This document shows, one piece after another, positions 35,189-47,785 of a DNA stretch of 64,000 nt. Positions within the stretch are counted from its first letter, which is position 1. Every line of letters begins with the position of its first letter. The DNA comes from Candidatus Magasanikiibacteriota bacterium (GTDB lineage Bacteria; Patescibacteriota; Patescibacteriia; Magasanikbacterales; GWA2-37-8), in NCBI GenBank assembly GCA_963840935.1, contig CAWJAS010000001.1:45902-109901 (forward strand). The letters run 5' to 3'. The position numbers and the translations under genes are program-made. The notes beneath the pieces are model-generated. The model was not told where the DNA came from. It saw only the letters and a list, made by a program, of their open reading frames with translations, and did no database searches.

Positions 35189-36676
35189 CTAAATTGTTTT
35201 GCTAATATAGTAATCAACCGGCGCAAAATCATCAGTCAAAATAGGCATATCCTCGGTTATTTTCTCTGTCCATCTGTGCTTCAAATAACTGTCGATGTCG
35301 GGATTTTCGCTTGAGAAAACCTGTTCTTCATCTGATTTCAGGGCGACCAAAATTATGTTTTGCACTTGGTAGCCGTTGGTTGGCGCGGAAACAGGGAATA
35401 AAAAGACCTGGGGGAACACGCTTTTGTATGTGGCGTATTCGGCGCGCAAAAATTTTCCTTTTTCTCCTTTGATTGATGAAATAATGTTTAAAACAACTAT
35501 TCCGTTTTCTTCCAGCGCGTCAAATTTTTTTTGTACCGCCTCTTTTGTGGTTAATTGGTACGGCAGGGAATATTGCGAACTGAAGGCGTCGCCAAAAATA
35601 ACATCATATTTATTTTTTGTTTCGTTCAAATATACTCGACCGTCTTTGTGATAAATTGTTAAGCGCGGATCGTCTTTTAATTTAAAATATTTTTTTGCCA
35701 GTTCGGTAATCATCGGGTCGATTTCAACCACGTCAATTGTCGCTTCCGGGTATTTTAGCAAAAATTCTTTCGGATAAGAATAACCGGCTCCGCCGAGCAT
35801 TAAAGTTTTTTGAAATCCTGGGTTAAAATGTTTTGCCAAATGATAATATTTGGCGTATTCATAAACCATGTTGTTGCTGTTCAAATACATGGCCGAGCTG
35901 TGCTCGCTGTTTATGGAGAATGTGCGGATAGTGTCATTCGCGTTTTTATCAAAAATTTCATAAATCCATACTCGGCTGTATGAAGTATCCACGTCAATAA
36001 ATCCTTTTTGAGCGAGAGCATTGTTTACTCCATCAAAGATAAACCAGCCGGCAAGCATTAAAGCAAAAACCAAAAATTTGATTTTTAATGCTTTTTTTGC
36101 GGAGAGAAACAAAGAAACAGTGATTAAAGTAATTGTTAAGATAATAAGCAGTTTGTTTGTGCCAAATTTGGGAATCAAATAAAAACCGGACAAAAAAGTG
36201 CCGACAATACTACCGGCAGTGGAAATAGCATAAAGATTACCAATGGTCGCGCCGGATATTTCAAGGTTTAATAATTTGAGTTTTGCCGCGTAGGGCGACA
36301 CCATGCCGAGAAGAATGCTTGTTGGAGAAAAAAGAACAATAGTCGCGATTATCGAAGATATTTTGATGTCGGGTATGGTCGCCTTTAAATAAACAAGAAA
36401 AAAATCTTTTATAATAAGTGTTAGTCCTATAAATATGGCCGATAAAAAAATTACAAGCGCAAGCATTTCTATGTTTGGTTTTTTGTCTGCCACTTTTCCG
36501 CCAAGAAAATAACCAAAGCTGAGACTGCCCAAAATTATTCCGATTAAGCTGGTCCAAACAAAAATCGAAGTGCCAAAATAGGGTCCAAGCACTCTGGAAC
36601 CGACCAGTTCAAATACCATGACCACCGCTCCACAAATAAAAACGGCGATTTCTAAAGAGTATTTATTTAACTTCAT
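35189..36676 (-). CDS. membrane-anchored spermidine synthase-like (polyamine aminopropyltransferase) fusion protein
   Basis: About 8 TM helices followed by SpeE-like motifs (LMLGGAGYSYP, VVEIDP, DVIFGDAFSS). Confidence 0.65.
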   Translation of the reverse strand: MKLNKYSLEIAVFICGAVVMVFELVGSRVLGPYFGTSIFVWTSLIGIILGSLSFGYFLGGKVADKKPNIEMLALVIFLSAIFIGLTLIIKDFFLVYLKATIPDIKISSIIATIVLFSPTSILLGMVSPYAAKLKLLNLEISGATIGNLYAISTAGSIVGTFLSGFYLIPKFGTNKLLIILTITLITVSLFLSAKKALKIKFLVFALMLAGWFIFDGVNNALAQKGFIDVDTSYSRVWIYEIFDKNANDTIRTFSINSEHSSAMYLNSNNMVYEYAKYYHLAKHFNPGFQKTLMLGGAGYSYPKEFLLKYPEATIDVVEIDPMITELAKKYFKLKDDPRLTIYHKDGRVYLNETKNKYDVIFGDAFSSQYSLPYQLTTKEAVQKKFDALEENGIVVLNIISSIKGEKGKFLRAEYATYKSVFPQVFLFPVSAPTNGYQVQNIILVALKSDEEQVFSSENPDIDSYLKHRWTEKITEDMPILTDDFAPVDYYISKTI

Positions 36677-36854
36677 GCGGAATGAATTAATTATTATCAG
36701 CCTATTTTACCGCTTTTTACGCATAATTTCAAGAGCGGGATAGTTTGCCGATAATTCAGTCGAGGTAATCCGAAAGGTTTTGCGTCGGTTATCATTTATG
36801 CTTATACAAAATATTATTATAGTGTAAATGCTTTTAGTCAAACGATAATGCGCG

Positions 36855-37265
36855 CTAGTAATCTTCTAGAGTTTTGTATGCTTTTATCCAATCTTGTGGG
36901 AATGAATGTTTTTTAATAAAAGCAGAAATCATTTTTTTATCGAAGCGAAGTGTCTTGAGATGAGGACAAAATCTTTTGTCTAATTTTACATTAGGTGTTT
37001 TTTTTGAAAAATCAAGCAAAAAAGGATAAAGTTGACATTCCAAAGGTCTTTTACGGTAAATAGTGCATTTTGCATTTTTGTCATCTAAAAAAATGCAGTT
37101 GCCGTTATCTTTTTTTGCCAATACCCTCATTTGCCTGTAAGCCGTTTTAACATTGCGTGAATATTTTTTGAACCTTTCTTCTTCAGAGGGCAATAACACA
37201 GGAGTTAAATTAGGATTTCTGCCACAACAATGATTCGCGCATTCATTACAATCTATTTGTATCAT
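36855..37265 (-). CDS. YkgJ family Cys-cluster (zinc/iron-chelating domain) protein
   Basis: CNECANHCC...C pattern of UPF0153. Confidence 0.5.
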   Translation of the reverse strand: MIQIDCNECANHCCGRNPNLTPVLLPSEEERFKKYSRNVKTAYRQMRVLAKKDNGNCIFLDDKNAKCTIYRKRPLECQLYPFLLDFSKKTPNVKLDKRFCPHLKTLRFDKKMISAFIKKHSFPQDWIKAYKTLEDY

Positions 37266-37288
37266 AATAATTGAACAAGAATATTAAT

Positions 37289-38194
37289 TTATTCGAATTT
37301 AAAGCTATTAACCATTTCTTGGTCATAGATATTTTGATAGTTTTCGTCTGCAACGAAAGTAGATGCTTGCCCGAGGTCCCATGAAATTGCCTTATTTTTT
37401 GCTGGGTAATATTTTAGAACCGTCATATAGTTTAATGGACATTCTGTATCTTCCAAATCTTTCCCGTCTCCCAGAATAGATACATCAAAAACACCAGATT
37501 GGTCCGAGGAATTTTTTTCGCCCAATTTGCATCCACTGCCGTAACGTTCCTTTATAAAATTTTCCAACTGCGTGTCATTATCGATGTCTCTAATAACAAA
37601 CTTCCAACTTTGTTGCTGAAAATATTTGTCATCCTTAAGACGGGCAAGTGAGTTCGCGACTTTTTCACATCCAGAATAATAATGAATATTATCTCTTATT
37701 GTTTCTCCGGTAAGTTCATAGAAATATTCACTGGAAATATAGATATTTTCATCTTCAAAAATTTTTACCGGGACAATTCCGTTTTTTGGGCGGTAGGAGT
37801 CGGTTTTCCATTCACACGCGGACCCATATCCATGGTACATTTTTTTAGGAACTTTAATTGAAAAGCCATATTTATGATTGGTGTATTTATTCCATGTTTG
37901 ATCGACTGAATTAATGGTCGAAGCAGTATCGGTTGTAGTTGGCTCAGTGTTAGTTGCGGGAGAATTTGGTTCATTTTTTGGGGTTTCTGATTGTTCCAGT
38001 AATGTAATTTGGTTTTCTAATGAAGTGATTTGTTTTTGTAAAATTTGTTCCGCAGATTTTCGATTTGAATTTTGCCATGCATATGCTCCACCACCCACAA
38101 TTAAGGCAGTTAAAACAATGGCAATAATAATGACCCAAATATTTTTCGAGTGTTGAGTTTGCGCATTTGGTTGTGGAAAATTTTGTTCGCTCAT
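37289..38194 (-). CDS. hypothetical membrane-anchored protein with coiled-coil
   Basis: 301 aa; N-terminal TM; no recognisable motif. Confidence 0.45.
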   Translation of the reverse strand: MSEQNFPQPNAQTQHSKNIWVIIIAIVLTALIVGGGAYAWQNSNRKSAEQILQKQITSLENQITLLEQSETPKNEPNSPATNTEPTTTDTASTINSVDQTWNKYTNHKYGFSIKVPKKMYHGYGSACEWKTDSYRPKNGIVPVKIFEDENIYISSEYFYELTGETIRDNIHYYSGCEKVANSLARLKDDKYFQQQSWKFVIRDIDNDTQLENFIKERYGSGCKLGEKNSSDQSGVFDVSILGDGKDLEDTECPLNYMTVLKYYPAKNKAISWDLGQASTFVADENYQNIYDQEMVNSFKFE

Positions 38195-38388
38195 ATTTAT
38201 TTTTAGTTAATAAAATTATTTTGAAATTTTTCGCTGTCTCATTCTATTTTTAATGTATCGTTCAACGGCCTCTTTTGTAGTCAGCCAGTCCCTACCTTCT
38301 TTGTGTGCTTCCAGTTTTCCTTGTCGGGCAAGTAAGTTTAGATATTTTGCGGAGTGGGCGCGTGTATGAGAAGTTTCGCCAACTTTCT

Positions 38389-38763
38389 TTATTGATCAAT
38401 CACTTTGTCTGTTTTCAAAATATCTCGCTTATCTTCACCCGTCGTCACCTGCTTGATGACTATAAATTTCACAATTTTGTCAGTATGATTAATAAAGGTG
38501 TGCGGTGTGTTTTCTGTTTCAATCAAATCACCAGCTTTGACAATCTGACTTTCGATTTTATCGCCGACTTTCCATTCAGCAGTCAGTTCGCCTTCAATAA
38601 TGTACAAACTTTCCAAAATCTTTTCATGATGATGCCAAGTTTGGGTTGTACCCCCTACTTGTTCATTATAGTGTAGCTCATATTCATCACGAAGATAATA
38701 GCGAACGTTTAACCCTTCCGGTTTTGAAACAGACAAAGATTCTTCACGTTTAACTATTTTCAT
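38389..38763 (-). CDS. cupin domain protein
   Basis: HHHEKILESLYIIEGEL...PHTFIN two-His cupin motifs. Confidence 0.65.
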   Translation of the reverse strand: MKIVKREESLSVSKPEGLNVRYYLRDEYELHYNEQVGGTTQTWHHHEKILESLYIIEGELTAEWKVGDKIESQIVKAGDLIETENTPHTFINHTDKIVKFIVIKQVTTGEDKRDILKTDKVIDQ

Positions 38764-38851
38764 AGTATTAATCTTATTTTTTAGAATAGCTTTTTGGCAA
38801 TTTTACATAAGGGGCGCGCTTATCCAAATTATTTTTTGCGGTTGTAACCTT

Positions 38852-38886
38852 GACAGAATAGCCGTTATTTGCTATATTGAAATGTC
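38852..38886 (+). promoter_or_regulatory. sigma70-like promoter (TTGACA, 17 bp spacer, TATATT)
   Basis: Consensus hexamers upstream of the 38975 ORF; GAAGGAGG RBS at about 38955. Confidence 0.5.
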
Positions 38887-38974
38887 AATAGTTGAGAAAT
38901 CGTCAAACCAAAAGAGTGGTTTTTCGCTGTTGCGAGGGTCTGCTCTTTTACAAATTTTGAAGGAGGAACATAAG

Positions 38975-39223
38975 ATGGGGAACAAAAGTATTTGCCGATC
39001 AGTAATGTTTGGCGCTATCATAGGATTATCGCTAGGGCTATTTCATTTCTGGCCATTCACACTGGTATTTATGCTCCTCGGAGGGATTGTTGCCGTGGTG
39101 ATCAGTGTAATAACTGGTCATGCAATAAACTTTCTACTTGTGCTAGTTATCGAGTATCTGCTCATGGTGTCGATCATGTTCATTGCGTTGTATGTACACG
39201 GCCGACGAAATGATAAAGGATGA
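38975..39223 (+). CDS. small hypothetical membrane protein (three TM helices)
   Basis: RBS-supported ATG; hydrophobic 82-aa product. Confidence 0.4.
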   Translation: MGNKSICRSVMFGAIIGLSLGLFHFWPFTLVFMLLGGIVAVVISVITGHAINFLLVLVIEYLLMVSIMFIALYVHGRRNDKG

Positions 39224-39309
39224 AAAGAGCAGATCCGGTTCAAACGCAAGGCGTTGGCTATATAGCTGACGCTTTTTTCTTATGGGCAAAATATAATTTG
39301 AAAGAAAAT

Positions 39310-39410
39310 GTCGCCTAACGTCAGGGATGTGAGAAGTTGCGACCAACGGGAGCAATTTGGGTGAAGAAGTCTGCAAGACTTCGTAACCTCATATCCCTTG
39401 TTATATCCCC
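39310..39410. repeat. attC-like imperfect-palindrome element E0
   Basis: Left arm GCCTAACGTCAGGGATGTGAGAAGTT; right arm CTCATATCCCTTGTTATAT; same family as E1-E5. Confidence 0.5.
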
Positions 39411-39504
39411 CATGGGGCTAAAATTTAGTGCAACGTCCCGAAGGGAAATTTCAGAGTTTGAGTCGTGACATTTATTTGTTAAGGGCAAAACTTCTACATT
39501 ACTA

Positions 39505-40050
39505 TTATTTCGATTCTAAATATTTTTTCAGTTTAGCAAATGGTTTGATTGCTAAGTATGTTTTTTGGTCATCATCTTCATCAAGTGACGCTCTGGTAAT
39601 AGCATAACCTTCCGGAATAAAAATCTTATCCCACCCATAACCATTATTTCCTGAAGGTTTCTCTGCAATTTCACCGCCTAAACTACCTTCAAACAATTCT
39701 AAATCTTTACCATCATAATAACCAAAAACACATCTTGCCGTTGCTTTTCTTGTTAATCCATTGCCAATCATTGAGCAGATTACCTCAAACGGAATCTTTT
39801 CTGCAAAGAATTTTATGAAAGGACCAGGCAATCCACCAAGAGCGTCAAATTCTAAAGCAACATCTTCAACAATAACCGGTTTCTTTATTAGCTCGTAAGC
39901 TTGTTTTACTTTATGTTCCGCAATTTCGTTCAAATCGGTAGATTGGATTTCATCTAAGTTCAGTTTGACATGATTTACAGTATAACCAAGATACTTGGAT
40001 AGATAATCCGCTTTATTTTGATTACCTGTGATAAAAGTTACATTTGCCAT
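39505..40050 (-). CDS. non-canonical purine NTP pyrophosphatase (Ham1/RdgB family)
   Basis: MANVTFITGNQNK... and conserved Ham1 blocks. Confidence 0.8.
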   Translation of the reverse strand: MANVTFITGNQNKADYLSKYLGYTVNHVKLNLDEIQSTDLNEIAEHKVKQAYELIKKPVIVEDVALEFDALGGLPGPFIKFFAEKIPFEVICSMIGNGLTRKATARCVFGYYDGKDLELFEGSLGGEIAEKPSGNNGYGWDKIFIPEGYAITRASLDEDDDQKTYLAIKPFAKLKKYLESK

Positions 40051-40074
40051 AATAAATGAATGAAAAAAAGCATA

Positions 40075-40210
40075 GTTTTAAAAAGTTCTGCCCATCCTTT
40101 TTGCCACGATTCAAATTTGGGTGAAGAAAATTTGCATTCTTTAGATTTATTTTTAGTGCAAAATTTCTGAACCGGATATGCCGTGTTAGGCGATGTAAAA
40201 AATAACCCCC
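40075..40210. repeat. attC-like element E1
   Basis: Right end GAACCGGATATGCCGTGTTAGGCGATGTAAAAAATAACCCCC abuts the GNAT stop codon; GTTAGGC matches the GTTRRRY core. Confidence 0.5.
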
Positions 40211-40701
40211 TAAATTTTTAATTCTAAATGTATGGCGTTGTATTTTGTGTCCGTTTCTGATTGTTCAATGTTAGTTATTTGGTAACCTCTTGTCAAAAGC
40301 ACCCTAAGCATTTCTGTCGAAACATTATAGACTTTTACGGTTACGGATTTATACTCATTAGCTCGAGCAAATTGTTCATTATTTTCAAAAAGCTTTGTGG
40401 CGATTCCTTTATTTCGGTGTTCTTTTAAAACACCCATAACCCAAATATATAAAGAGCCGTCTCTATTATAAGAAATTGAATCGCCAACAACTTGGCCATC
40501 AACCTTCGCTATGAAAATTTTTGGTACTAATACTTTTAATTTTTCTTGATAATGTTCTAATGAATAAGGATCCTGTTCATACATCCCTTTGAAAATTTTC
40601 AAGTTTGCGAGAACAATTTGCTCGAGTTGATCGTTATTTCCTTCAGATATTTCAAATTGGTTGGGTTGTTCCATATTCGGACGCGGTAATACGTTTTTCA
40701 T
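40210..40701 (-). CDS. GNAT family N-acetyltransferase
   Basis: Acetyl-CoA-binding motif (VLKEHRNKGIATKLF). Confidence 0.7.
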   Translation of the reverse strand: MKNVLPRPNMEQPNQFEISEGNNDQLEQIVLANLKIFKGMYEQDPYSLEHYQEKLKVLVPKIFIAKVDGQVVGDSISYNRDGSLYIWVMGVLKEHRNKGIATKLFENNEQFARANEYKSVTVKVYNVSTEMLRVLLTRGYQITNIEQSETDTKYNAIHLELKI

Positions 40702-40859
40702 AAAAATTTAGGGGGTTATTTTTTTATTTTGCATAACGTTTACGAGTATCCGAAGTTTTTCTGAAGCGGAGCGAAAAAAAATTTTGGGTGAAGGCTTTTG
40801 TATAAAAGCCGTAACCGGATACTCGTTGTTAGCTGATGTATTTTGATGACTTTTATTTA
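40702..40859. repeat. attC-like element E2
   Basis: Arms AACGTTTACGAGTATCCGAAG and CCGGATACTCGTTGTTAGC; centre TTCTGAAGCGGAGCG...TTTTGGGTGAAGG shared with E5. Confidence 0.55.
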
Positions 40860-41942
40860 TTATAATAATTTTTGAGCAAAAACAAAAACCATTCCATCAT
40901 ATCCAACTTTTTCTTTATCACTTCCTTCTAAAACAGACATTTCAATAACTTTAAATTTATTTTGTTCAAGATATTGAGCAATATCTTCTTCATTAATTTT
41001 TGTGGCTGGCATTTTTTCTTCTCCTACTTGATACCACTCAGCATTTCTTATCGCGGATAGTGAAAGATATCCGCTGGGTTTAATCATATCAGTTATATTT
41101 TTCATTCCTTGTTCCCATGTCGCTCGATCTGACGTTGCTGATTCAATTGTAAAATTTGAAGTTAGTAATTCCGTGCTTGCTTCTCTGCCTGAAGCTGTAA
41201 CTGCGTCATATTGTTCATCGGTAGGCAATTCGAGACCTTCTACAAAAACATTGCCATGGGTTACTGATCCAACCACGGCCCTAAGGTGCTTTTTCATATC
41301 TTCTATATCTTCGCTTTCAAGTAGTTTTAAAACATTCTGCGCATGTGTTTTTGTTTTTTCATCATCTAATTCGGTTTGTTTTTTAAGAATAGACATGTAT
41401 TTCTCATCATTTTTTAAAGTACGTTGCATTAATGAAAAATATGCATCCCAATTATAGCTATCTTCATCTTGGTCAAGCCAGCGTTTTACCTCTTCCCGAT
41501 TTTGTTCTAAGAATTCTGAATGGGTTATACTTCCAGCCTCTAGCGATACTGGTATATGCTGGTATATTGTTGGTCCACCACCGACATCTAATACTTTTAT
41601 ATTGTCTTGGGGAAAAGCTTCAAGCAAATTGCGAGCCACTTTTTTTTGAAAATCAAAAATTACTATATTTTCAACTGTTTCATGAGGTAAATTTGTTTTT
41701 TCTACAATATCCTCAATATTTACATGTCCGTCATTTTTATCTAACTCCTTTTTAACTTCCTCCATGGCCCAAGAGAATTTTTCTAAATCAATCCGATCAG
41801 GATAGTATGTTGCAATATAATCTTTAGCACCAAATTTTTCCTTAAAAATGGCGGATTCTTCTTCTTTTATTGATGGTTGAGGTTGCTCCGCACCTTTTGA
41901 AGATTCTGATTTATTAAATTGTTTTATTTTTTCTAAATTCAT
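40860..41942 (-). CDS. putative class I SAM-dependent methyltransferase
   Basis: Motif I VLDVGGGPTIY; otherwise unassigned. Confidence 0.45.
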   Translation of the reverse strand: MNLEKIKQFNKSESSKGAEQPQPSIKEEESAIFKEKFGAKDYIATYYPDRIDLEKFSWAMEEVKKELDKNDGHVNIEDIVEKTNLPHETVENIVIFDFQKKVARNLLEAFPQDNIKVLDVGGGPTIYQHIPVSLEAGSITHSEFLEQNREEVKRWLDQDEDSYNWDAYFSLMQRTLKNDEKYMSILKKQTELDDEKTKTHAQNVLKLLESEDIEDMKKHLRAVVGSVTHGNVFVEGLELPTDEQYDAVTASGREASTELLTSNFTIESATSDRATWEQGMKNITDMIKPSGYLSLSAIRNAEWYQVGEEKMPATKINEEDIAQYLEQNKFKVIEMSVLEGSDKEKVGYDGMVFVFAQKLL

Positions 41943-42121
41943 AAAGTCACCAAAATATTTCAGCTAACGTATCCGAATATGAGAAGTTTTTGCCCGCTTC
42001 CTTATCATATTTCAAAAGAAGAAAAGGGCAAAAATTTGGGTAAAAAATGAAATTCAAGTCCATTGTATTATAAAGAGAATTTCATTTTTTCCTCATATTC
42101 GGTGTTGTGCGATGTAAATTT
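41943..42121. repeat. attC-like element E3
   Basis: Arms CTAACGTATCCGAATATGAG and CTCATATTCGGTGTTGTGCGATGTAAA; inner inverted repeat TTTTTGCCC / GGGCAAAAA. Confidence 0.55.
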
Positions 42122-42430
42122 TTATTTTTCTTTGTTAATCCACTTTTTATCAATCGCTTCTTCTAAATCAATACCAAGTAAATGCGCATTAACTATGGCC
42201 ATTCCAACAACATCAGCTAGCTCCTTCGCCAATTCCTTTTTCGAAACTTCTTCGGGAACGTGTTTTTCTGGACGACTCTTTTTTCGGTGAATTAAAACAG
42301 CTTGAGTAAGTTCACCAACTTCCTCATATAATTTTAACAAAGCAAAATCTTCATCAATTTTGACATTGTATTTTTGGCCATAGTTAATCGCATTTTCTAC
42401 GACCCTTTTTTGTAGTTCTTTGAAATCCAT
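42122..42430 (-). CDS. MazG-like nucleotide pyrophosphohydrolase domain protein
   Basis: EExGE motif (EEVGELTQAV) and AIVNAHLLGIDLEEAI; start trimmed to MDFKEL so the ORF does not overlap E4. Confidence 0.55.
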   Translation of the reverse strand: MDFKELQKRVVENAINYGQKYNVKIDEDFALLKLYEEVGELTQAVLIHRKKSRPEKHVPEEVSKKELAKELADVVGMAIVNAHLLGIDLEEAIDKKWINKEK

Positions 42431-42625
42431 AAAAGAAAAATTAAAATTTATTTCGCACAACGTTTGTGTATAGCAGAAGTTTTTGCCCGCTTCCTTATTA
42501 TATTTTTTAAAGATAGAAAAGGGCAAAAATTTGGATGAAGGAAATTGCGCTACCTTATTTTATTGTAAAAATGCGCAATTTCTTGAATCTGCTATACGCT
42601 GTTGTACGATGTTGGCTTTCCATTT
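42431..42625. repeat. attC-like element E4
   Basis: Arms ACAACGTTTGTGTATAGCAGAAG and CTGCTATACGCTGTTGTACGATGTTGGC; same TTTTTGCCCGCTTCCTTAT centre as E3. Confidence 0.55.
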
Positions 42626-42726
42626 TATTCCATTATTTGGGCAGTTTTTGATCGCAATCATTGACAGGTGGGGCGCGATCGTGTTAGATTAGTCTGTCGC
42701 CCATAACACAAAGGAGGTAGCGGCAC

Positions 42727-43020
42727 ATGACACACGAAGAAGTCGAACAGCTGGTAGAACGTGTGAAAAGCAGCGGATCAGCGGTTATCGAAGCCATGAC
42801 CGAGGAGGAGCTTGCGGAGCTGGAGGCACATCTTCAGACATGTGATGAGGAAAGGTGCATGAAGGTTCGGGAGGACGAAGCGCAGACTCGAGGGGGATTC
42901 GGTGCGTACCTTCGGGGAGAACACTCCTACGGTGGTACGTCCCACAGGGACTTGGGGGTGCACTTCCCTCGAGTCTGGGGTGAGGTAGGTTTCGTCAACT
43001 CTGTCGTCTCTGGCAAGTAG
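42727..43020 (+). CDS. GC-rich orphan small protein, in inverted orientation relative to neighbouring cassettes, with its own promoter
   Basis: TTGACA, 17 bp spacer, TTAGAT promoter at about 42660-42694; AAAGGAGG RBS; flanked by a 26-bp inverted repeat (42601-42626 / 43122-43150). Confidence 0.45.
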   Translation: MTHEEVEQLVERVKSSGSAVIEAMTEEELAELEAHLQTCDEERCMKVREDEAQTRGGFGAYLRGEHSYGGTSHRDLGVHFPRVWGEVGFVNSVVSGK

Positions 43021-43117
43021 AGCGCCCCGCCGCCCCTCGCTCACACGACCCGCTTGGCTATATGCCTCGTGGGTCGCTTTCATTTCAGGAGAGAAAACTG
43101 CCCAAATAATTGAATTG

Positions 43118-43280
43118 AAAAAGAAAAATGGAAAGCCAATTTCGTACAACGTTAGGCATATCCGAAGTTTTTCTGAAGCGTAGCGGAGGAAAAATTTGGG
43201 AGAGAAAATTTTGCTTTCCTTAATTTATTATAAAGTGCAAAATTTTTGAACCGGATATGCCTTGTTATGTGATGTAAAAT
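43118..43280. repeat. attC-like element E5
   Basis: Arms ACAACGTTAGGCATATCCGAAG and GAACCGGATATGCCTTGTTATGTGATGTAAAA; 10-bp perfect arm complementarity (GGCATATCCG / CGGATATGCC). Confidence 0.55.
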
Positions 43281-43329
43281 TCTTTCTTTTTTCTTTTTTT
43301 AAATTTGCTTTTATTCTAAATGATAAATA

Positions 43330-43385
43330 AGTTTTTTGTTTTTGATTTTGGGCAGAGGGGTAAGGGGTGAATGCCCAAAATCAAA
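43330..43385. terminator. strong bidirectional hairpin (TTTGATTTTGGGCA...TGCCCAAAATCAAA)
   Basis: 14-bp perfect stem. Confidence 0.55.
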
Positions 43386-43396
43386 AACTCCTTATT

Positions 43397-44206
43397 TTAA
43401 ATATTTATTTGGTTATTTTTAACAATAATAGCTCCTGATTTTTCAATTATTGATTTTACAGCGAGAATCTTATCTTTAAATTCTTCAGAATTTTTAGTCA
43501 AACAATTATTACAGTCCGCACTCCATTTAATAATCATTAATTTTGCAGCTCCTTTGATAATGTCGTATAAATCTTCAGGTGAAACAAATTTAGCTTTAAA
43601 TTTTGTTGCTTTTTCTAGTTTTCTTGATTTTTCATCAAGCGCTGAATATGATAGTCCTAATCCTTGAGCTACGGAAAAAAAGTGCGTTAAAGAATTTCTT
43701 AATTTTCTAAGATCGTCAGCCGTAATATGTTTTAATCTCTCTTGATTATTTTTGCACCACCCGTTTTCTGAATTTAAACAAAATTCTTTTATAAATTTTT
43801 TCACATTTTCTTGATTCATCGCTTTTTTGATAATTTCTTTTTCATCGGAAGTCTTATTTTCGTAAGCTATGTTCAGGCAAAATAGAGTTTCTAGATTGGC
43901 AAACAAAACTATCATTTCTGAGCGAATAGGTCTATCTATTTTTAATTTATCGGCAATAGTGGCAGGCGGTTCTGAAAAAGTAAATTTAAAATCAATTGAA
44001 TTTTCTTTAAGTTTACCAGCAAGCACTTCAACAAGTTCTATCGTCTCCAGATGCTGTTTTCTAATTGATTCTAATTTTTTATCGAAATTTATTAAATCTT
44101 CAATTTCTTTTTCGATTTCCTGTAAAAAAAATATGACTTCTCGTAAATTTGGAGAAATTAAAACTTTATCGCCATCAAAAATAAAATGTGTGCTTTGATT
44201 TTGCAT
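43397..44206 (-). CDS. hypothetical protein with Rx4H (HEPN-like) motif
   Basis: RKLRNSLTHFF fits the HEPN Rx4-6H signature; adjacent to the R-M module; weak. Confidence 0.35.
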   Translation of the reverse strand: MQNQSTHFIFDGDKVLISPNLREVIFFLQEIEKEIEDLINFDKKLESIRKQHLETIELVEVLAGKLKENSIDFKFTFSEPPATIADKLKIDRPIRSEMIVLFANLETLFCLNIAYENKTSDEKEIIKKAMNQENVKKFIKEFCLNSENGWCKNNQERLKHITADDLRKLRNSLTHFFSVAQGLGLSYSALDEKSRKLEKATKFKAKFVSPEDLYDIIKGAAKLMIIKWSADCNNCLTKNSEEFKDKILAVKSIIEKSGAIIVKNNQINI

Positions 44207-44218
44207 ATTTCAATATTA

Positions 44219-44983
44219 TTATTTCAATCTACGGATAGCCAAGTCAACATATCTTTTTTCTTTTTCAATCCCAATCCAATTTCTGCCAAGTGCTTTTGCA
44301 ACAAAAGCGGTTGTACCGCTTCCCAAAAAAGGATCTAGAACAATGTCGTCTTTTTTGCTTGCTGCTAATATCACTTGCTGAATTAGTTTAAGTGGTTTTT
44401 GAGTTGGGTGTGCTTTTATGCCATTTTCATCTTTTAGTCTTTCATTTCCTCTGCATAAACCAAAGACCCAATCCGTATCTTTCATTTGCTTTCCGCCGTT
44501 CATTATTTTCATTTGCTCATAGTTAAAAGTATAGCCCTTGCATGTTTTATCTTTCACTGCCCAAACCAGTGTTTCGTGATTATTTGTAAATCTTCGCCCG
44601 TTAAGATTTGGCAGAGCGTCAGTTTTAACCCAAATCACATCATTCAAAAACCAAATTCCTAGATCCTGCATAATTGTCCCGACACGAAAAATATTGTGAT
44701 ACATTCCAATAACCCACATTGTTCCTGTTGGTTTTAATATCCTTTGGCTTTCTTTGAGCCAGTTTTTTGTAAAATTATCATAGTCCTCGTAGCTTTCAAA
44801 TTTATCCCATTCATCATCAACTGGAATAACCTCAGTGCCATTAGCTCTTTTTAATCTTTTGCCTTTTGGGAGTTGTAAAAAATATGGCGGATCTGCAAAA
44901 ATCAAATCAATAGAGTTGTCTGGAAATTCTTTTAATATTTCTAGACAATCGCCATGAATTACTTTGTTTATATATTTTTGCAT
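44219..44983 (-). CDS. beta-class N6-adenine/N4-cytosine DNA methyltransferase (DpnA-like)
   Basis: N-terminal IHGDCLEILKEFPDNSIDLIFADPPY (motif IV DPPY near the N-terminus). Confidence 0.8.
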   Translation of the reverse strand: MQKYINKVIHGDCLEILKEFPDNSIDLIFADPPYFLQLPKGKRLKRANGTEVIPVDDEWDKFESYEDYDNFTKNWLKESQRILKPTGTMWVIGMYHNIFRVGTIMQDLGIWFLNDVIWVKTDALPNLNGRRFTNNHETLVWAVKDKTCKGYTFNYEQMKIMNGGKQMKDTDWVFGLCRGNERLKDENGIKAHPTQKPLKLIQQVILAASKKDDIVLDPFLGSGTTAFVAKALGRNWIGIEKEKRYVDLAIRRLK

Positions 44984-44987
44984 CTAA

Positions 44988-46109
44988 CTAAAAATTATAA
45001 ATAACAAGATGTTCAACTTCTCTATCATTTCTGCCTTTCATATTGTAGAGATATGTTTTTTCAAAACTGTCCACTTTTATTCCTTTTTTATTTTTATACA
45101 AATCATAAATAAAAGCAGTTTTTTTGATAATTAAAATGAAGTTAGCCTTGGTGTTATATAAACATTTAGCCAATCTTTCTTGATCGTTTTTATCAAAAAC
45201 TGCTTTTTCATAATCACTAAAATCAGTATCATAGGGAGGATCAAGAAAAATAAAATCATTTTTATTTAAATCTTTTTGAGAAAGTATTTTTTCAAAATCA
45301 GTATTTAAAATTTTTTTATCTTTAAAAACTTTTTCAACTTCTTCACTAAGTATATAATTTACTTTACTTCTAAAATCTTTGTTGTTGTATGCAATACCGC
45401 CATAGGGAATGTTGAAATCACCATTGGCATTAAATCTAAACATTGAGGCATAGCAAAACTCTCTTATAAAATAATAATTTGATATTTTTTTTGCTAAAGA
45501 TGTTTTGTATTTTGAACCATTTTTATTCATTACATCTCGAAAGTGCATATAAAAACCGCTCCTAAAAGCTGTTTCAATGTTTTTGTGCAAATCGCCGTCT
45601 GGCAATTTGCCACGATCCTTTTCAATTTTTTTAGTTCTGCTAATTTTTGAAATTAAATTTTTAATTACTTCTTCAAGTAAATTATTTGGGTCAAGGGCAA
45701 AATTTTTCGAAAACAAACCATTAAATTGATCCTCTTTTGCTTTGAGTTTTTTAGTTATTATTTCCTTAACTTCTTTTTCTGTTTTTTTATCGTCCTTATA
45801 TTCTTCGTAAAGTTTAATAAAATCATTTTCAAAAATACTTATATACTTTGGAATTTTTTCCCAGTTATCGACATAATCATATAGACATTTTTTAAATTCC
45901 TTTTTATCATTTTCACCTTTGATAAAGCGATAAAATTCAACCAACTCTGCACAAATATCATTTATTATCGCTTTTTTTGGTTGAAGTTTAAAAAATATTG
46001 CTCCGCCACCAAAAAACGGCTCGATATATCGAGTGTGTTTTGGTATGAGATTTTTAATCTGCTCATACTCCTTAGATTTTCCACCAGGCCATTTAATAAG
46101 TGAATTCAT
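44988..46109 (-). CDS. Dam-family (D12 class) N6-adenine DNA methyltransferase
   Basis: KWPGGK, EPFFGGGAIF motif I and DPPY motif IV in the alpha-class order. Confidence 0.8.
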   Translation of the reverse strand: MNSLIKWPGGKSKEYEQIKNLIPKHTRYIEPFFGGGAIFFKLQPKKAIINDICAELVEFYRFIKGENDKKEFKKCLYDYVDNWEKIPKYISIFENDFIKLYEEYKDDKKTEKEVKEIITKKLKAKEDQFNGLFSKNFALDPNNLLEEVIKNLISKISRTKKIEKDRGKLPDGDLHKNIETAFRSGFYMHFRDVMNKNGSKYKTSLAKKISNYYFIREFCYASMFRFNANGDFNIPYGGIAYNNKDFRSKVNYILSEEVEKVFKDKKILNTDFEKILSQKDLNKNDFIFLDPPYDTDFSDYEKAVFDKNDQERLAKCLYNTKANFILIIKKTAFIYDLYKNKKGIKVDSFEKTYLYNMKGRNDREVEHLVIYNF

Positions 46110-46112
46110 AAA

Positions 46113-46931
46113 TTATCCGAGATAAGTTTTTTTGATTGAATCTAGCGATTTTTTAATTAGATCGGCTTTTTCTTTGTACGCATCAAGCACAATTTTATAT
46201 CCTTCATCTGATTTGCATACAAAATCCCAAAAGTCTTTTCCGATTAAAAGCTCATCGTCTGAAAAAAATTGTCTGACCCGTTCTTGTTTCCATGGTTTTC
46301 CCTCGCCGAAACGATTATATGCAGTTGCAAAAAACATTTGTATTTTTGTATCTTGTGGCAATGTATTTGATAAAATTGCAAATTGCTCTAGCAGAGCTTC
46401 CTTTTCTGATCTAGCTTTCTTATTGTCTAGATCGCCACCAATTTTTAACTCAATCAAAAAATTATCGCCCGTTTCTTTATCAATCAAGTAGTAATCACTA
46501 TCATGCCTTTTTGTTACGAGTGATTGATCTTCGGGCTTAACACGCAAAAACTGATAATCTTCCGCCGTCGGCGGAGCTATTTCTCTGCGTTTATATTTTT
46601 CTAACAATTCCGCCATGTCTTGGGTTTGTTTCAGACTAAGTGGCCCCTCAACGTTTTGCTTAACTTCGTATGTTAATTTTGCAATGTTGATAGCCATTTT
46701 TTCCAGCATATTACCCAAAGAGCTATCAAGTGATCGCACTAAAGCAGTGTAATATTGTATTTCTGGACCAAGAACCGCAATAAAAACATTATGAATTTTC
46801 ATGTTTAGCGTTCCTGACGGATCTTCTAGCTCGCCCTCGTGTCTTCCTTGGAATCCAACTGCGAAAGATTCAACTGACGCGTGAACAATAGATCTTATAG
46901 CTTCTTTTTTGCTTAAAATATCTTGTGTCAT
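46113..46931 (-). CDS. putative type II restriction endonuclease partner of the two methyltransferases
   Basis: 272-aa ORF translationally coupled upstream of the methyltransferase genes; the endonuclease assignment rests on gene context only. Confidence 0.4.
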   Translation of the reverse strand: MTQDILSKKEAIRSIVHASVESFAVGFQGRHEGELEDPSGTLNMKIHNVFIAVLGPEIQYYTALVRSLDSSLGNMLEKMAINIAKLTYEVKQNVEGPLSLKQTQDMAELLEKYKRREIAPPTAEDYQFLRVKPEDQSLVTKRHDSDYYLIDKETGDNFLIELKIGGDLDNKKARSEKEALLEQFAILSNTLPQDTKIQMFFATAYNRFGEGKPWKQERVRQFFSDDELLIGKDFWDFVCKSDEGYKIVLDAYKEKADLIKKSLDSIKKTYLG

Positions 46932-47004
46932 ATTTTGTAAGTTATATTTTTAAAAGTTTCCTCTATTATACCTCAAAAAAATCTAAAATAGAAATCGTTT
47001 TTTG

Positions 47005-47035
47005 CTGCCCCTTTGTGGGCAGAAAAAACACCTTA
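47005..47035. terminator. bidirectional terminator hairpin (GCTGCCCCTTTGTGGGCAGAAAAAA)
   Basis: GC stem with flanking T and A runs. Confidence 0.55.
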
Positions 47036-47290
47036 TACCCCTATATAAATAGATAAAAAAACTTATCTTTCCTTATTATAAAAAAGCAAATTTAAAAAAA
47101 GAAAAAAGAAAGAATTTTATTTCACATAACTACCTTTATCATGACTAGTGGTAAAAACCGCTAAAATATGATAAAATTTTTGAGAAATTGGGGTTATAGG
47201 CGACGAAGGTGAGAGAAAAGTAAATTTATTTGCTTTTCCGAGCCAAGGAGCTTATATACTGTGTATATAGCCCCTGGGGGTATGGCCATC

Positions 47291-47785
47291 TTATTCTACC
47301 AAACATTTCTTATTTTTTACAAATTCAAAAAACAAAATCAAGCCGGTTCCGGCCACAATCAAAACATCTGCTAAATTGAACATACTAATGGTGACAAGAA
47401 AATAGTCTATGGCGTGGCCGTATAAAATGCGGTCGGCAAAATTAGATAAAGCTCCGAGCGCCACAAAAATCAAACCAATAATAATAAATTCATTTTTTGC
47501 TTGGAAATAAAAATATGCCAAAACGCCAAGAAAAATAATTGAAGCAATAATAATGATTATCTTCGGAATAATAATTCCAAAAGCGATTCCCGGATTGTGA
47601 TGGGGCATCCAGCCAAGCCACGGAAATAACAGTTTAGGTTGGTTCAAAAAAGAATCAGCCAAAATTTTAAAAATACGATCTAAAATAAATAAAAAACCGC
47701 CCGCAAAAATCATGCTCGGGCGGAGTTTAAATTTCATATTTACCAAACCTTTATAATTCCTGAGTAATCGCTTTTTTGCATTCAA
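47291..47785 (-). CDS. lspA: lipoprotein signal peptidase II
   Basis: Four TM helices; conserved NxxDR (FADRILYG) and AIDYF motifs. Confidence 0.7.
   Translation of the reverse strand: MNAKKRLLRNYKGLVNMKFKLRPSMIFAGGFLFILDRIFKILADSFLNQPKLLFPWLGWMPHHNPGIAFGIIIPKIIIIIASIIFLGVLAYFYFQAKNEFIIIGLIFVALGALSNFADRILYGHAIDYFLVTISMFNLADVLIVAGTGLILFFEFVKNKKCLVE

Follow-up and report, generated by a model that had tools for sequence, protein, structure and literature searches.

A 64,000-nt stretch of contig CAWJAS010000001.1 from Candidatus Magasanikiibacteriota bacterium (GenBank assembly GCA_963840935.1, positions 45,902 to 109,901; hereafter the window, meaning the whole stretch analysed) raises the question of whether a run of unrelated small genes, each followed by a palindromic element of similar build, is a cassette array of the integron type. 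Our analysis indicates that positions 38825-47185 of the window very probably constitute a chromosomal integron-type platform, made up of an attI-like remnant and six cassettes read on the minus strand, from which the integrase gene has been lost. The sequence-only reading that first drew attention to the locus had proposed an integron-like array of the CALIN type (a cluster of attC sites lacking an integron integrase), and this proposal is borne out by the boundary signature of the cassettes, the clustering of the sites, their linkage to a recombinase in other genomes, the exchange of junctions and the lack of a recombinase in the window. Provided that the sites are attC, the locus fits the definition of a CALIN: five sites are complete, one is a half site, and the 64 kb contain no recombinase.

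The elements, named E0-E5, were delineated with a covariance model, R1, trained on 86 elements that all come from other genomes and run unfiltered over the window, the plus strand of which is the folding 'bottom' strand of the sites. R1 returned six matches, all on the plus strand and all between 39.3 and 43.3 kb, with no further match in the rest of the 64-kb window (next best E = 0.08), and nhmmer agrees with R1 on these elements:

43144-43270, plus strand: E5, attC-like (R1 93.5 bits, E = 7e-25)
42455-42607, plus strand: E4, attC-like (R1 72.3 bits, E = 1e-18)
41962-42110, plus strand: E3, attC-like (R1 68.0 bits, E = 3e-17)
40731-40834, plus strand: E2, attC-like (R1 93.1 bits, E = 9e-25)
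40078-40191, plus strand: E1, truncated attC (R1 23.5 bits, E = 4e-4)
39313-39406, plus strand: E0, last complete site (R1 65.3 bits, E = 2e-16)

Five of the six are complete. Only positions 40113-40191 of E1 are recognisable, comprising hairpin 2, L'' and R'' and lacking L', hairpin 1 and R', and the local nhmmer match (40113-40190, E = 5e-8) covers model positions 50-103 only. The sequence-only reading was right in its count of six except that E1 is half an element, and its lengths of up to 195 bp give way to measured lengths of 94-153 nt. Within the window the elements are clustered and co-oriented, with none beyond 39.3-43.3 kb. A 22-base gapped bottom-strand motif has three matches in the window against zero expected.

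Read on the minus strand, an element begins with (T/A)ACATC, the 7-nt R'' box NNNNAAC, one A and an L'' arm of 10-12 nt, and continues through two inner hairpins, the L' arm, 3-4 nt (AAC, AAAC, ATAC or GAC), the R' box GTTNNNN and GAAAT. On that strand the R'' boxes are ACATAAC (E5), GTACAAC (E4), GCACAAC (E3), AGCTAAC (E2) and GCCTAAC (E1), and the R' ends that follow AAC are GTTGTAC (E5), GTTGTGC (E4), GTTAGCT (E3), GTTATGC (E2) and GTTAGGC (E0). All five complete elements combine boxes of the form NNNNAAC ... GTTRNNY with complementary inner arms of 10-12 nt, which is the R''/R' palindrome of classical sites, and AAC and GTT are invariant in 86/86 related elements. The box motifs picked out beforehand are all present in the sequence as given, and the inner arms are, as had been noticed, complementary inside each element and different between elements.

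The cassette boundaries carry the signature expected of integron cassettes. In each R', the four variable bases complement the R'' of the element that follows rather than their own R'': three neighbouring pairs in the window match at 7/7 positions (E5 GTTGTAC with E4 GTACAAC, E4 GTTGTGC with E3 GCACAAC, and E3 GTTAGCT with E2 AGCTAAC), the pair E2 GTTATGC with E1 GCCTAAC matches at 6/7 with one mismatch, and the attI junction CACATAAC pairs with E5 GTTATGT, giving a total of four junctions at 7/7 and one at 6/7. Across all loci, full 4-base complementarity is seen in 50% of 151 neighbouring pairs as against 6% in mismatched controls. Because the R' bases match the next cassette, the crossover would lie at G↓TT, as in integrons (the arrow marks the crossover here and below). 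Complementarity between the two ends of a cassette also runs outward, for 24-48 nt in the window and for 12-39 nt (median near 22) in 47 non-redundant cassettes, with a fixed mismatch at positions 10-11 where GATGT faces GAAAT. We rejected the idea that such inverted repeats at cassette ends are a unique feature, because four class 1 control cassettes have 10-12 nt of the same complementarity; with 20-30 nt (up to 48) here, the difference is one of degree. A fixed complementarity length of 26 nt was likewise rejected, the range being 12-39 nt once redundancy was removed.

The sites are also strongly asymmetric between strands. The plus (bottom) strand gives the more stable fold in 5/5 complete window elements, and the bottom strand is more stable than the top in 234/254 elements of the family. 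Structure statistics from a MAFFT alignment of the 86 related elements yield a consensus three-way junction, in which a 4-bp AACG/TGTT stem is followed by a 2-3 nt bulge, a 10-bp L stem and two hairpins; hairpin 1 is closed by AAGTTTTT/AAAAATTT, and both hairpins are framed by the invariant GAAGTTTTT and AAAAATTTGGG. Paired cells of the structure amount to 97.3%, compared with 80% in shuffled alignments and 34-53% when partners are slid, and 10/10 pairs of the L stem and 7/8 of hairpin 2 show changes on both sides. The bottom strand also has two G.T pairs that never vary and that would be C.A mismatches on the opposite strand. The bottom-strand fold proposed as a check on the locus gives a bulged Y-shaped hairpin, though one without extrahelical bases in its L stem.

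The same site family is widespread in other genomes. The 22-base gapped motif matched at least 119 stretches of one-genome-per-species contigs, and the family counts given here are among the loci listed, which we designate by L numbers where they must be told apart. Their record titles mostly name Patescibacteria (Moran-, Kerfeld-, Falkow-, Magasanik-, Uhr-, Sacchari- and Parcubacteria), and DPANN archaea (Woese-, Pace- and Nanoarchaeota) are also among the matches, some on contigs of 84-457 kb. R1 recognises 261 sites in 114 of the listed loci, 75 of which have two or more, and the sites are co-oriented in every multi-site locus but one. The sites lie a median of 756 nt apart, and of the 124 scorable cassettes, 116 have their longest open reading frame (ORF) on the top strand and 8 on the bottom strand. 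Clustered, co-oriented sites 0.5-1 kb apart, as in classical integrons, are found in the window and in these loci alike. The exception to co-orientation, the sole one of 114, is L104 (524-6952), where two arrays on opposite strands converge inside 7 kb. A 100-nt subtype, AACGT(T/C)AGGGATATACGAAGTTTTTCTGGAACGAAGTGGAAGAAAAATTTGGGTGAAGCCCGAGCCGAGGGCTGAACCGTATATCCCTTGTTATAC, is present in L016, L046, L012, L021, L104 and about 35 other loci, and is near-identical on long contigs labelled Kerfeldbacteria (822 kb) and Woesearchaeota (103 kb) as well as on many short contigs labelled as other phyla, a distribution compatible either with sites recently exchanged between the two domains or with short contigs that were binned wrongly. 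A viral origin was considered and dropped; IMG/VR contains just two matching contigs.

In these relatives, the array is linked to a recombinase. An IntI1-like protein is encoded in 19 listed loci (E 1e-21 to 1e-51, with a query 100% identical to annotated IntI1), and in 19/19 its gene is found at the array's 5' end, transcribed away from it and with no sites on the far side, the divergent geometry of classical integrons and of our class 1 control. The linkage was recovered from the opposite direction by a reciprocal search that started from an alignment of the linked recombinases and for which 80 metagenome loci were fetched. R1 sites are present in 8/13 of the closest relatives (at least 44% identity), and 15/15 R1 matches lie upstream of the gene on the same strand; none of the relatives below 44% identity in the fetched loci has R1 sites, which restricts the link between recombinase and site to one subclade. 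The linked enzymes measure about 275 amino acids (aa; range 255-290 with their closest metagenomic relatives) and, compared with IntI1, lack about 45 residues of the IntI-specific additional domain. Their best solved relative is VchIntIA (2a3v, E = 2e-51), which aligns in two stretches with IntI4 residues 187-241 skipped, and the second best is XerA (5hxy, E = 3e-46). The residues aligned to the IntI1 active-site R, K, H, R, H and Y are conserved, as is the C-terminal IKSPLD. An adjacent IntI with the additional domain, as classical integrons have, was found neither in the window, which carries no recombinase, nor in its relatives, whose recombinase lacks the domain. According to Messier and Roy in 2001 and the structure of MacDonald et al. 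in 2006, the segment missing here is reportedly the domain that touches the extrahelical bases of attC. Its absence is in keeping with sites whose L stem is free of extrahelical bases.

An attI and signs of movement complete the picture. In 11 related loci, an attI lies beside the integrase gene and joins the first cassette at G↓TT, and the attI regions share the core AAC↓T.GTTtaTATGCGAA. The window has kept the corresponding segment:

47131-47185, minus strand: attI-like remnant, aligning with the attI/P_int regions beside recombinase genes in L032, L077 and L084

This segment aligns with the shared attI regions; it joins the first cassette at ...CACATAAC↓TACCTTTATCATGACTAGTGG...CCGCTAAAATATGATAAAAT, there is no attC beyond 47130, and the attI core in this family, AAC↓TCGTTTATATG, resembles that of attI1, AAC↓TTTGTTTTAGG. 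One cassette 5' end, ...AAAGAAAAAAGAAAGAATTTTATTTCACATAAC↓, is joined at the identical AAC↓ to different partners, namely attCs in L015, L039 and L103, attI in L089, L116 and the window, and an unclassified partner in L084. Since the same end meets different attC and attI partners, comparison of the junctions shows what appears to be site-specific exchange at AAC↓, of both the attC × attC and the attI × attC kind. The restriction-modification (R-M) genes of the first window cassette recur in L074 with 92-98% protein identity. In L089 (about 6761-8000), the attI has two TTATGCGAA repeats followed by a ATGAATCTTCAAGAA... start resembling a recombinase N-terminus, after which a long ORF is absent; this may be a disrupted integrase gene.

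Several observations weigh against this interpretation of the window, and we bring them together here. No recombinase or fragment of one was detected in the 64-kb window by phmmer or tblastn, and cassette mobility is inferred from the comparison of junction sequences. The L stem has no extrahelical bases, its 10-bp helix being aligned without indels in 86/86 elements, and a 5-6 nt unpaired spacer is absent, the only unpaired bases being the 2-3 nt bulge beside AACG. The linked recombinases score 196-243 bits with TIGR02249 (integron integrase), matching it in two pieces and falling short of its cut-off of 265, and pass NF040815 ('XerA-type / integron integrase') with 218-253 bits against a cut-off of 220. 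Pairing of the L stem was a selection criterion for the 86 training elements, so that its 97.8% pairing is partly circular; the diversity of the arm sequences, hairpin 2 and the window's own elements are free of this circularity. Finally, taxon labels of short contigs from metagenome-assembled genomes (MAGs) may be wrong, and the few MAGs labelled as other phyla were treated with caution.

The rival that survives best, although we consider it improbable, is that the locus is an ordinary integron cassette cluster with standard attCs, served by a classical, domain-bearing IntI encoded elsewhere, with the short recombinases being incidental. The R'/R'' boxes, the G↓TT signature, the co-orientation, the spacing and the attI geometry are all classical, and published MAGs of Woesearchaeales and Pacearchaeales contain attC clusters that lack IntI (PMC9668308). 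By contrast, all 19 array-linked recombinases and their closest metagenomic relatives lack the insert, and none with the insert stands beside this site family; the short recombinases occupy the classical position at attI in 19/19 loci. The L stem is without bulged bases, unlike the class 1 attC controls with their 6/5-nt spacers and extra G in L'', and R1 does not recognise class 1 attCs (best E = 0.046), which places the two types of site at least far apart.

Less probable still is that the array consists of modules that depend on Xer, as the pdif modules of Acinetobacter plasmids do, and that a XerA/XerCD-type enzyme would act on double-stranded dif-like sites instead of folded single strands. 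The bit scores above the NF040815 cut-off, the Xer-like architecture without the IntI insert and a conserved motif of about 12 bp flanking the crossover (ATTTC-NNNN-AAC / GTT-NNNN-GATGT) are in keeping with this idea. Against it, the sites are structured palindromes of 94-153 nt with covarying stems rather than 28-bp dif sites, they are co-oriented and do not alternate, their strands are strongly asymmetric with invariant G.T pairs on one of them, a dedicated attI adjoins the recombinase gene and the enzyme is closest in sequence to VchIntIA. The elements thus differ from pdif sites in both length and arrangement, although no search aimed at dif sites was made.

That the elements are dispersed repetitive extragenic palindromes (REP), bacterial interspersed mosaic elements (BIME) or miniature inverted-repeat transposable elements (MITE), or else intrinsic terminators or RNA structures of 3' untranslated regions with no role in gene mobility, is hardly credible: they are indeed intergenic palindromes directly after stop codons, with an inner sequence unusually conserved for attC sites, but six matches, all co-oriented, fall within 4 kb and none elsewhere in the 64 kb examined, where no scatter in both orientations with ends of their own is seen, the outer box varies together with the gene next to it, one and the same cassette end is fused to several partners, no terminator emerged from a scan around the attI junction (46850-47320) and by eye no T-run follows the element hairpins, and Rfam, which contains no attC family, gave no family match to the elements at gathering thresholds nor at E <= 1.

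The plain reading of the window is a chromosomal integron remnant, a CALIN from which the integrase gene was deleted, and its layout is as follows:

43150-47129, minus strand: cassette 1, R-M cassette of 3.9 kb, ending with E5
43397-44206: unknown ORF of cassette 1
44219-44983: N4/N6 DNA methylase of cassette 1 (Pfam/PADLOC)
44988-46109: D12 N6-adenine methylase of cassette 1 (Pfam/PADLOC)
46113-46931: TdeIII-type restriction enzyme of cassette 1 (Pfam/PADLOC)
42461-43149, minus strand: cassette 2, ending with E4; inverted repeat 42601-42648 with 43094-43150
42727-43020, plus strand (reverse): G+C-rich ORF of cassette 2, 97 aa, with its own promoter-like and terminator-like sequences
41968-42460, minus strand: cassette 3, ending with E3; 30-nt inverted repeat 42104-42133 with 42432-42461
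42122-42430: MazG-like nucleotide pyrophosphohydrolase of cassette 3 (Pfam)
40737-41967, minus strand: cassette 4, ending with E2; 26-nt inverted repeat 40828-40853 with 41943-41968
40860-41942: NNMT/PNMT/TEMT-family methyltransferase of cassette 4 (Pfam)
39319-40736, minus strand: cassette 5, two former cassettes fused, ending with E0
40210-40701: GNAT acetyltransferase of cassette 5, followed by the half element E1
39505-40050: Ham1/ITPase ORF of cassette 5, after E1
38825-39318, minus strand: cassette 6, truncated, with its distal arm cut and its attC missing
38882-39223, plus strand (reverse): membrane-protein ORF of cassette 6, 113 aa, with its own promoter and terminator

The methylases and restriction enzyme of cassette 1 are a type II R-M system. 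A terminal inverted repeat of 47-49 nt pairs 43264-43312 with 47082-47130, and this partner of the E5 flank sets the limits of the cassette at 43150-47129; the array accordingly reaches past the 43.3 kb first proposed, to 47130. At 43336-43389, after the stop codon and ahead of the R'' arm, cassette 1 carries a hairpin, GTTTTTGATTTTGGGCA-GAGGGGTAAGGGGTGAA-TGCCCAAAATCAAAAAC, that recurs in unrelated cassettes of L068, L107, L031, L100 and L041 (1680-1735) with a variable stem and a conserved G-rich loop, and without a match in Rfam.

Beyond the attI-like remnant come lspA and then a DksA/TraR-type gene, and no integrase gene. The sequence from the remnant to lspA (47186-47290) contains AAATTGGGGTTATAGGCGACGAAGGTGAGAG, which resembles a AAATTTGGG...GTTNNNN site end plus a G+C-rich module, with a GGCTATATAC...GTATATAAGC palindrome after it; it may be the debris of the deletion that removed the integrase gene. 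A short G+C-rich module stands beside E0 at 39407-39458, directly outside R'' (for example GCCCCGACGACTGAAAGGAGGAGAGCGCAGCGTGGC), and such modules are also present in L004, in many loci right after the GTTNNNN of the 100-nt subtype and in L036 (3606-3650). Setting L036 beside the window reveals one such module inserted within one arm of the terminal inverted repeat of a cassette. These modules share motifs of the GAGCG/GCAGCG type with the hairpin-1 loop (GAAGCGnAGCGG) and with small hairpins outside R'.

Cassette 5 joins a GNAT and a Ham1 gene in one unit because E1 has lost its distal half, and the GNAT gene retains a perfect 24-nt terminal inverted repeat of its own (40197-40220 with 40701-40724). 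The ends of cassette 6 are 86-88% identical to those of an L036 cassette bounded by two attCs, and all that is left of its distal arm is 38825-38839; with that arm cut and the attC gone, the array ends at about 38825. Both reverse cassettes (38840-39290 and 42650-43090) have a TTGACA...TATATT/TTAGAT promoter-like site and a terminator-like hairpin with a shared loop, GGCTATAT(A)GC. Cassette 2 (42650-43090) exceeds 50% G+C in a genome of 35% G+C, a composition that points to a foreign origin.

The extension of the array to the YkgJ, hypothetical and cupin genes could not be upheld. It had relied on weaker remnants near 36770, 38330-38365 and 38800, where R1 has no match and the best nhmmer hit is E = 6 at 38361-38376; the last of them, TTTTACATAAGG at about 38800, is on the wrong strand. 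Neither the YkgJ nor the cupin protein occurs in a cassette of the fetched loci by tblastn. The membrane protein with a spermidine-synthase domain at 35189-36676 of the window has an orthologue, 66% identical in protein sequence, at 69-1640 of the Moraniibacteriota contig L041. As this orthologue directly adjoins a truncated attC, the two lineages seem to carry the platform at one and the same chromosomal site; the window genes at 36.7-38.8 kb lie where the comparison with L041 would put the array.

Taken together with the anatomy of the sites, these arrays suggest how the system would operate. Each cassette consists of one or a few genes and then an attC-like site. The bottom strand (plus in the window) would fold into a Y-shaped hairpin, at the base of which a short AACG/TGTT stem presents the crossover triplet; above it would follow the 2-3 nt bulge, an uninterrupted stem of 10-11 bp that varies in sequence yet remains paired, and then the two hairpins. 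A tyrosine recombinase would cut at AAC↓GTT and move the cassettes, and with a cut at that position the bases outside it would belong to the neighbouring cassette. In the relatives, the mover would be the enzyme of about 275 aa, a close relative of integron integrases that lacks the IntI-specific additional domain; the window cassettes would be mobile only with a recombinase supplied from elsewhere in the genome or the community. The anatomy, the strand bias, the boundary signature, the varied junctions of one cassette end and, in other genomes, the recombinase linkage are directly observed; catalysis, single-strand folding in vivo and the choice of the cut strand are the parts of this scheme that we infer.

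How far does this system resemble integrons already described? It shares with classical integrons the divergent recombinase gene with its adjoining attI; the co-oriented ORFs, most of them without a promoter and all with an imperfect palindrome behind them that bears RYYYAAC/GTTRRRY-like boxes; the G↓TT crossover, with the last R' bases belonging to the next cassette; the better folding of the bottom strand; and the occasional reverse-oriented cassette with its own promoter, as well as a defence (R-M) cassette. Sites that are alike in sequence within one array are also a property of sedentary integrons such as the Vibrio superintegron. It differs in that the recombinase lacks the IntI-specific additional domain of about 45-55 aa; in that the sites have neither an extrahelical L-stem base nor a 5-6 nt spacer, but a 2-3 nt bulge beside AACG; in an interior that is a conserved three-way junction (GAAGTTTTT, AAAAATTTGGG) and not a free variable loop; in the conserved GATGT/GAAAT outside the R boxes; and in its hosts, bacteria of the candidate phyla radiation (CPR) and DPANN archaea. 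With XerA and XerC-XerD the linked enzymes have in common their size, their domain layout, the NF040815 assignment and 5hxy as second-best solved relative, whereas they stand beside an attI and a cassette array rather than a chromosomal dif, match VchIntIA best and share the C-terminal IKSPLD with IntI. With no extrahelical bases in the sites and no IntI additional domain in the associated recombinase, 'integron-like' is the right wording for the window array.

The additional domain of IntI and the extrahelical bases of attC are held to be defining and essential features of integrons, and detection tools require the domain. Here both are absent together while the other hallmarks of integrons are present, including the junction evidence at attC and attI. 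We see about even chances that the family is a distinct, undescribed integron class of CPR bacteria and DPANN archaea, whose integrase never had or has lost the additional domain and would read attCs without extrahelical bases by way of the conserved three-way junction, the bulge adjoining the triplet that is cleaved and an R arm of 12 bp in which a T.T/G.T mismatch is fixed. Our literature search, incomplete in coverage, found no account of CPR integrons or of domain-less IntI-like enzymes beside arrays. The closest precedent, Ghaly et al. 2022 (PMC9668308), described clusters of attC sites, most of them lacking IntI, in groundwater and sediment MAGs of Woesearchaeales and Pacearchaeales and argued for cross-domain sharing of attC sites; the IntIs accepted there, six in total, all had to carry the additional domain, and the absence of integrases was put down to fragmented MAGs. 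Compared by description, the arrays studied here differ from those archaeal CALINs in adjoining a recombinase without the domain. A separate paper notes that 97% of contigs with 'integron-type' recombinases have no detectable attC sites (PMC13323075).

The system described here would explain part of the puzzle posed by recombinases without detectable attC sites (PMC13323075) and by archaeal attC clusters without IntI (PMC9668308). It places gene capture in the small-genome lineages of CPR bacteria and DPANN archaea, with near-identical sites on long contigs labelled as bacteria and archaea, and provides a concrete pair of enzyme and site for asking how strand and orientation are chosen without extrahelical bases. 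If the distinct class is real, many metagenomic 'integron-type' recombinases and IntI-less attC clusters would be complete, active platforms, and the system could be a link between Xer-type recombinases and the classical integron integrases.

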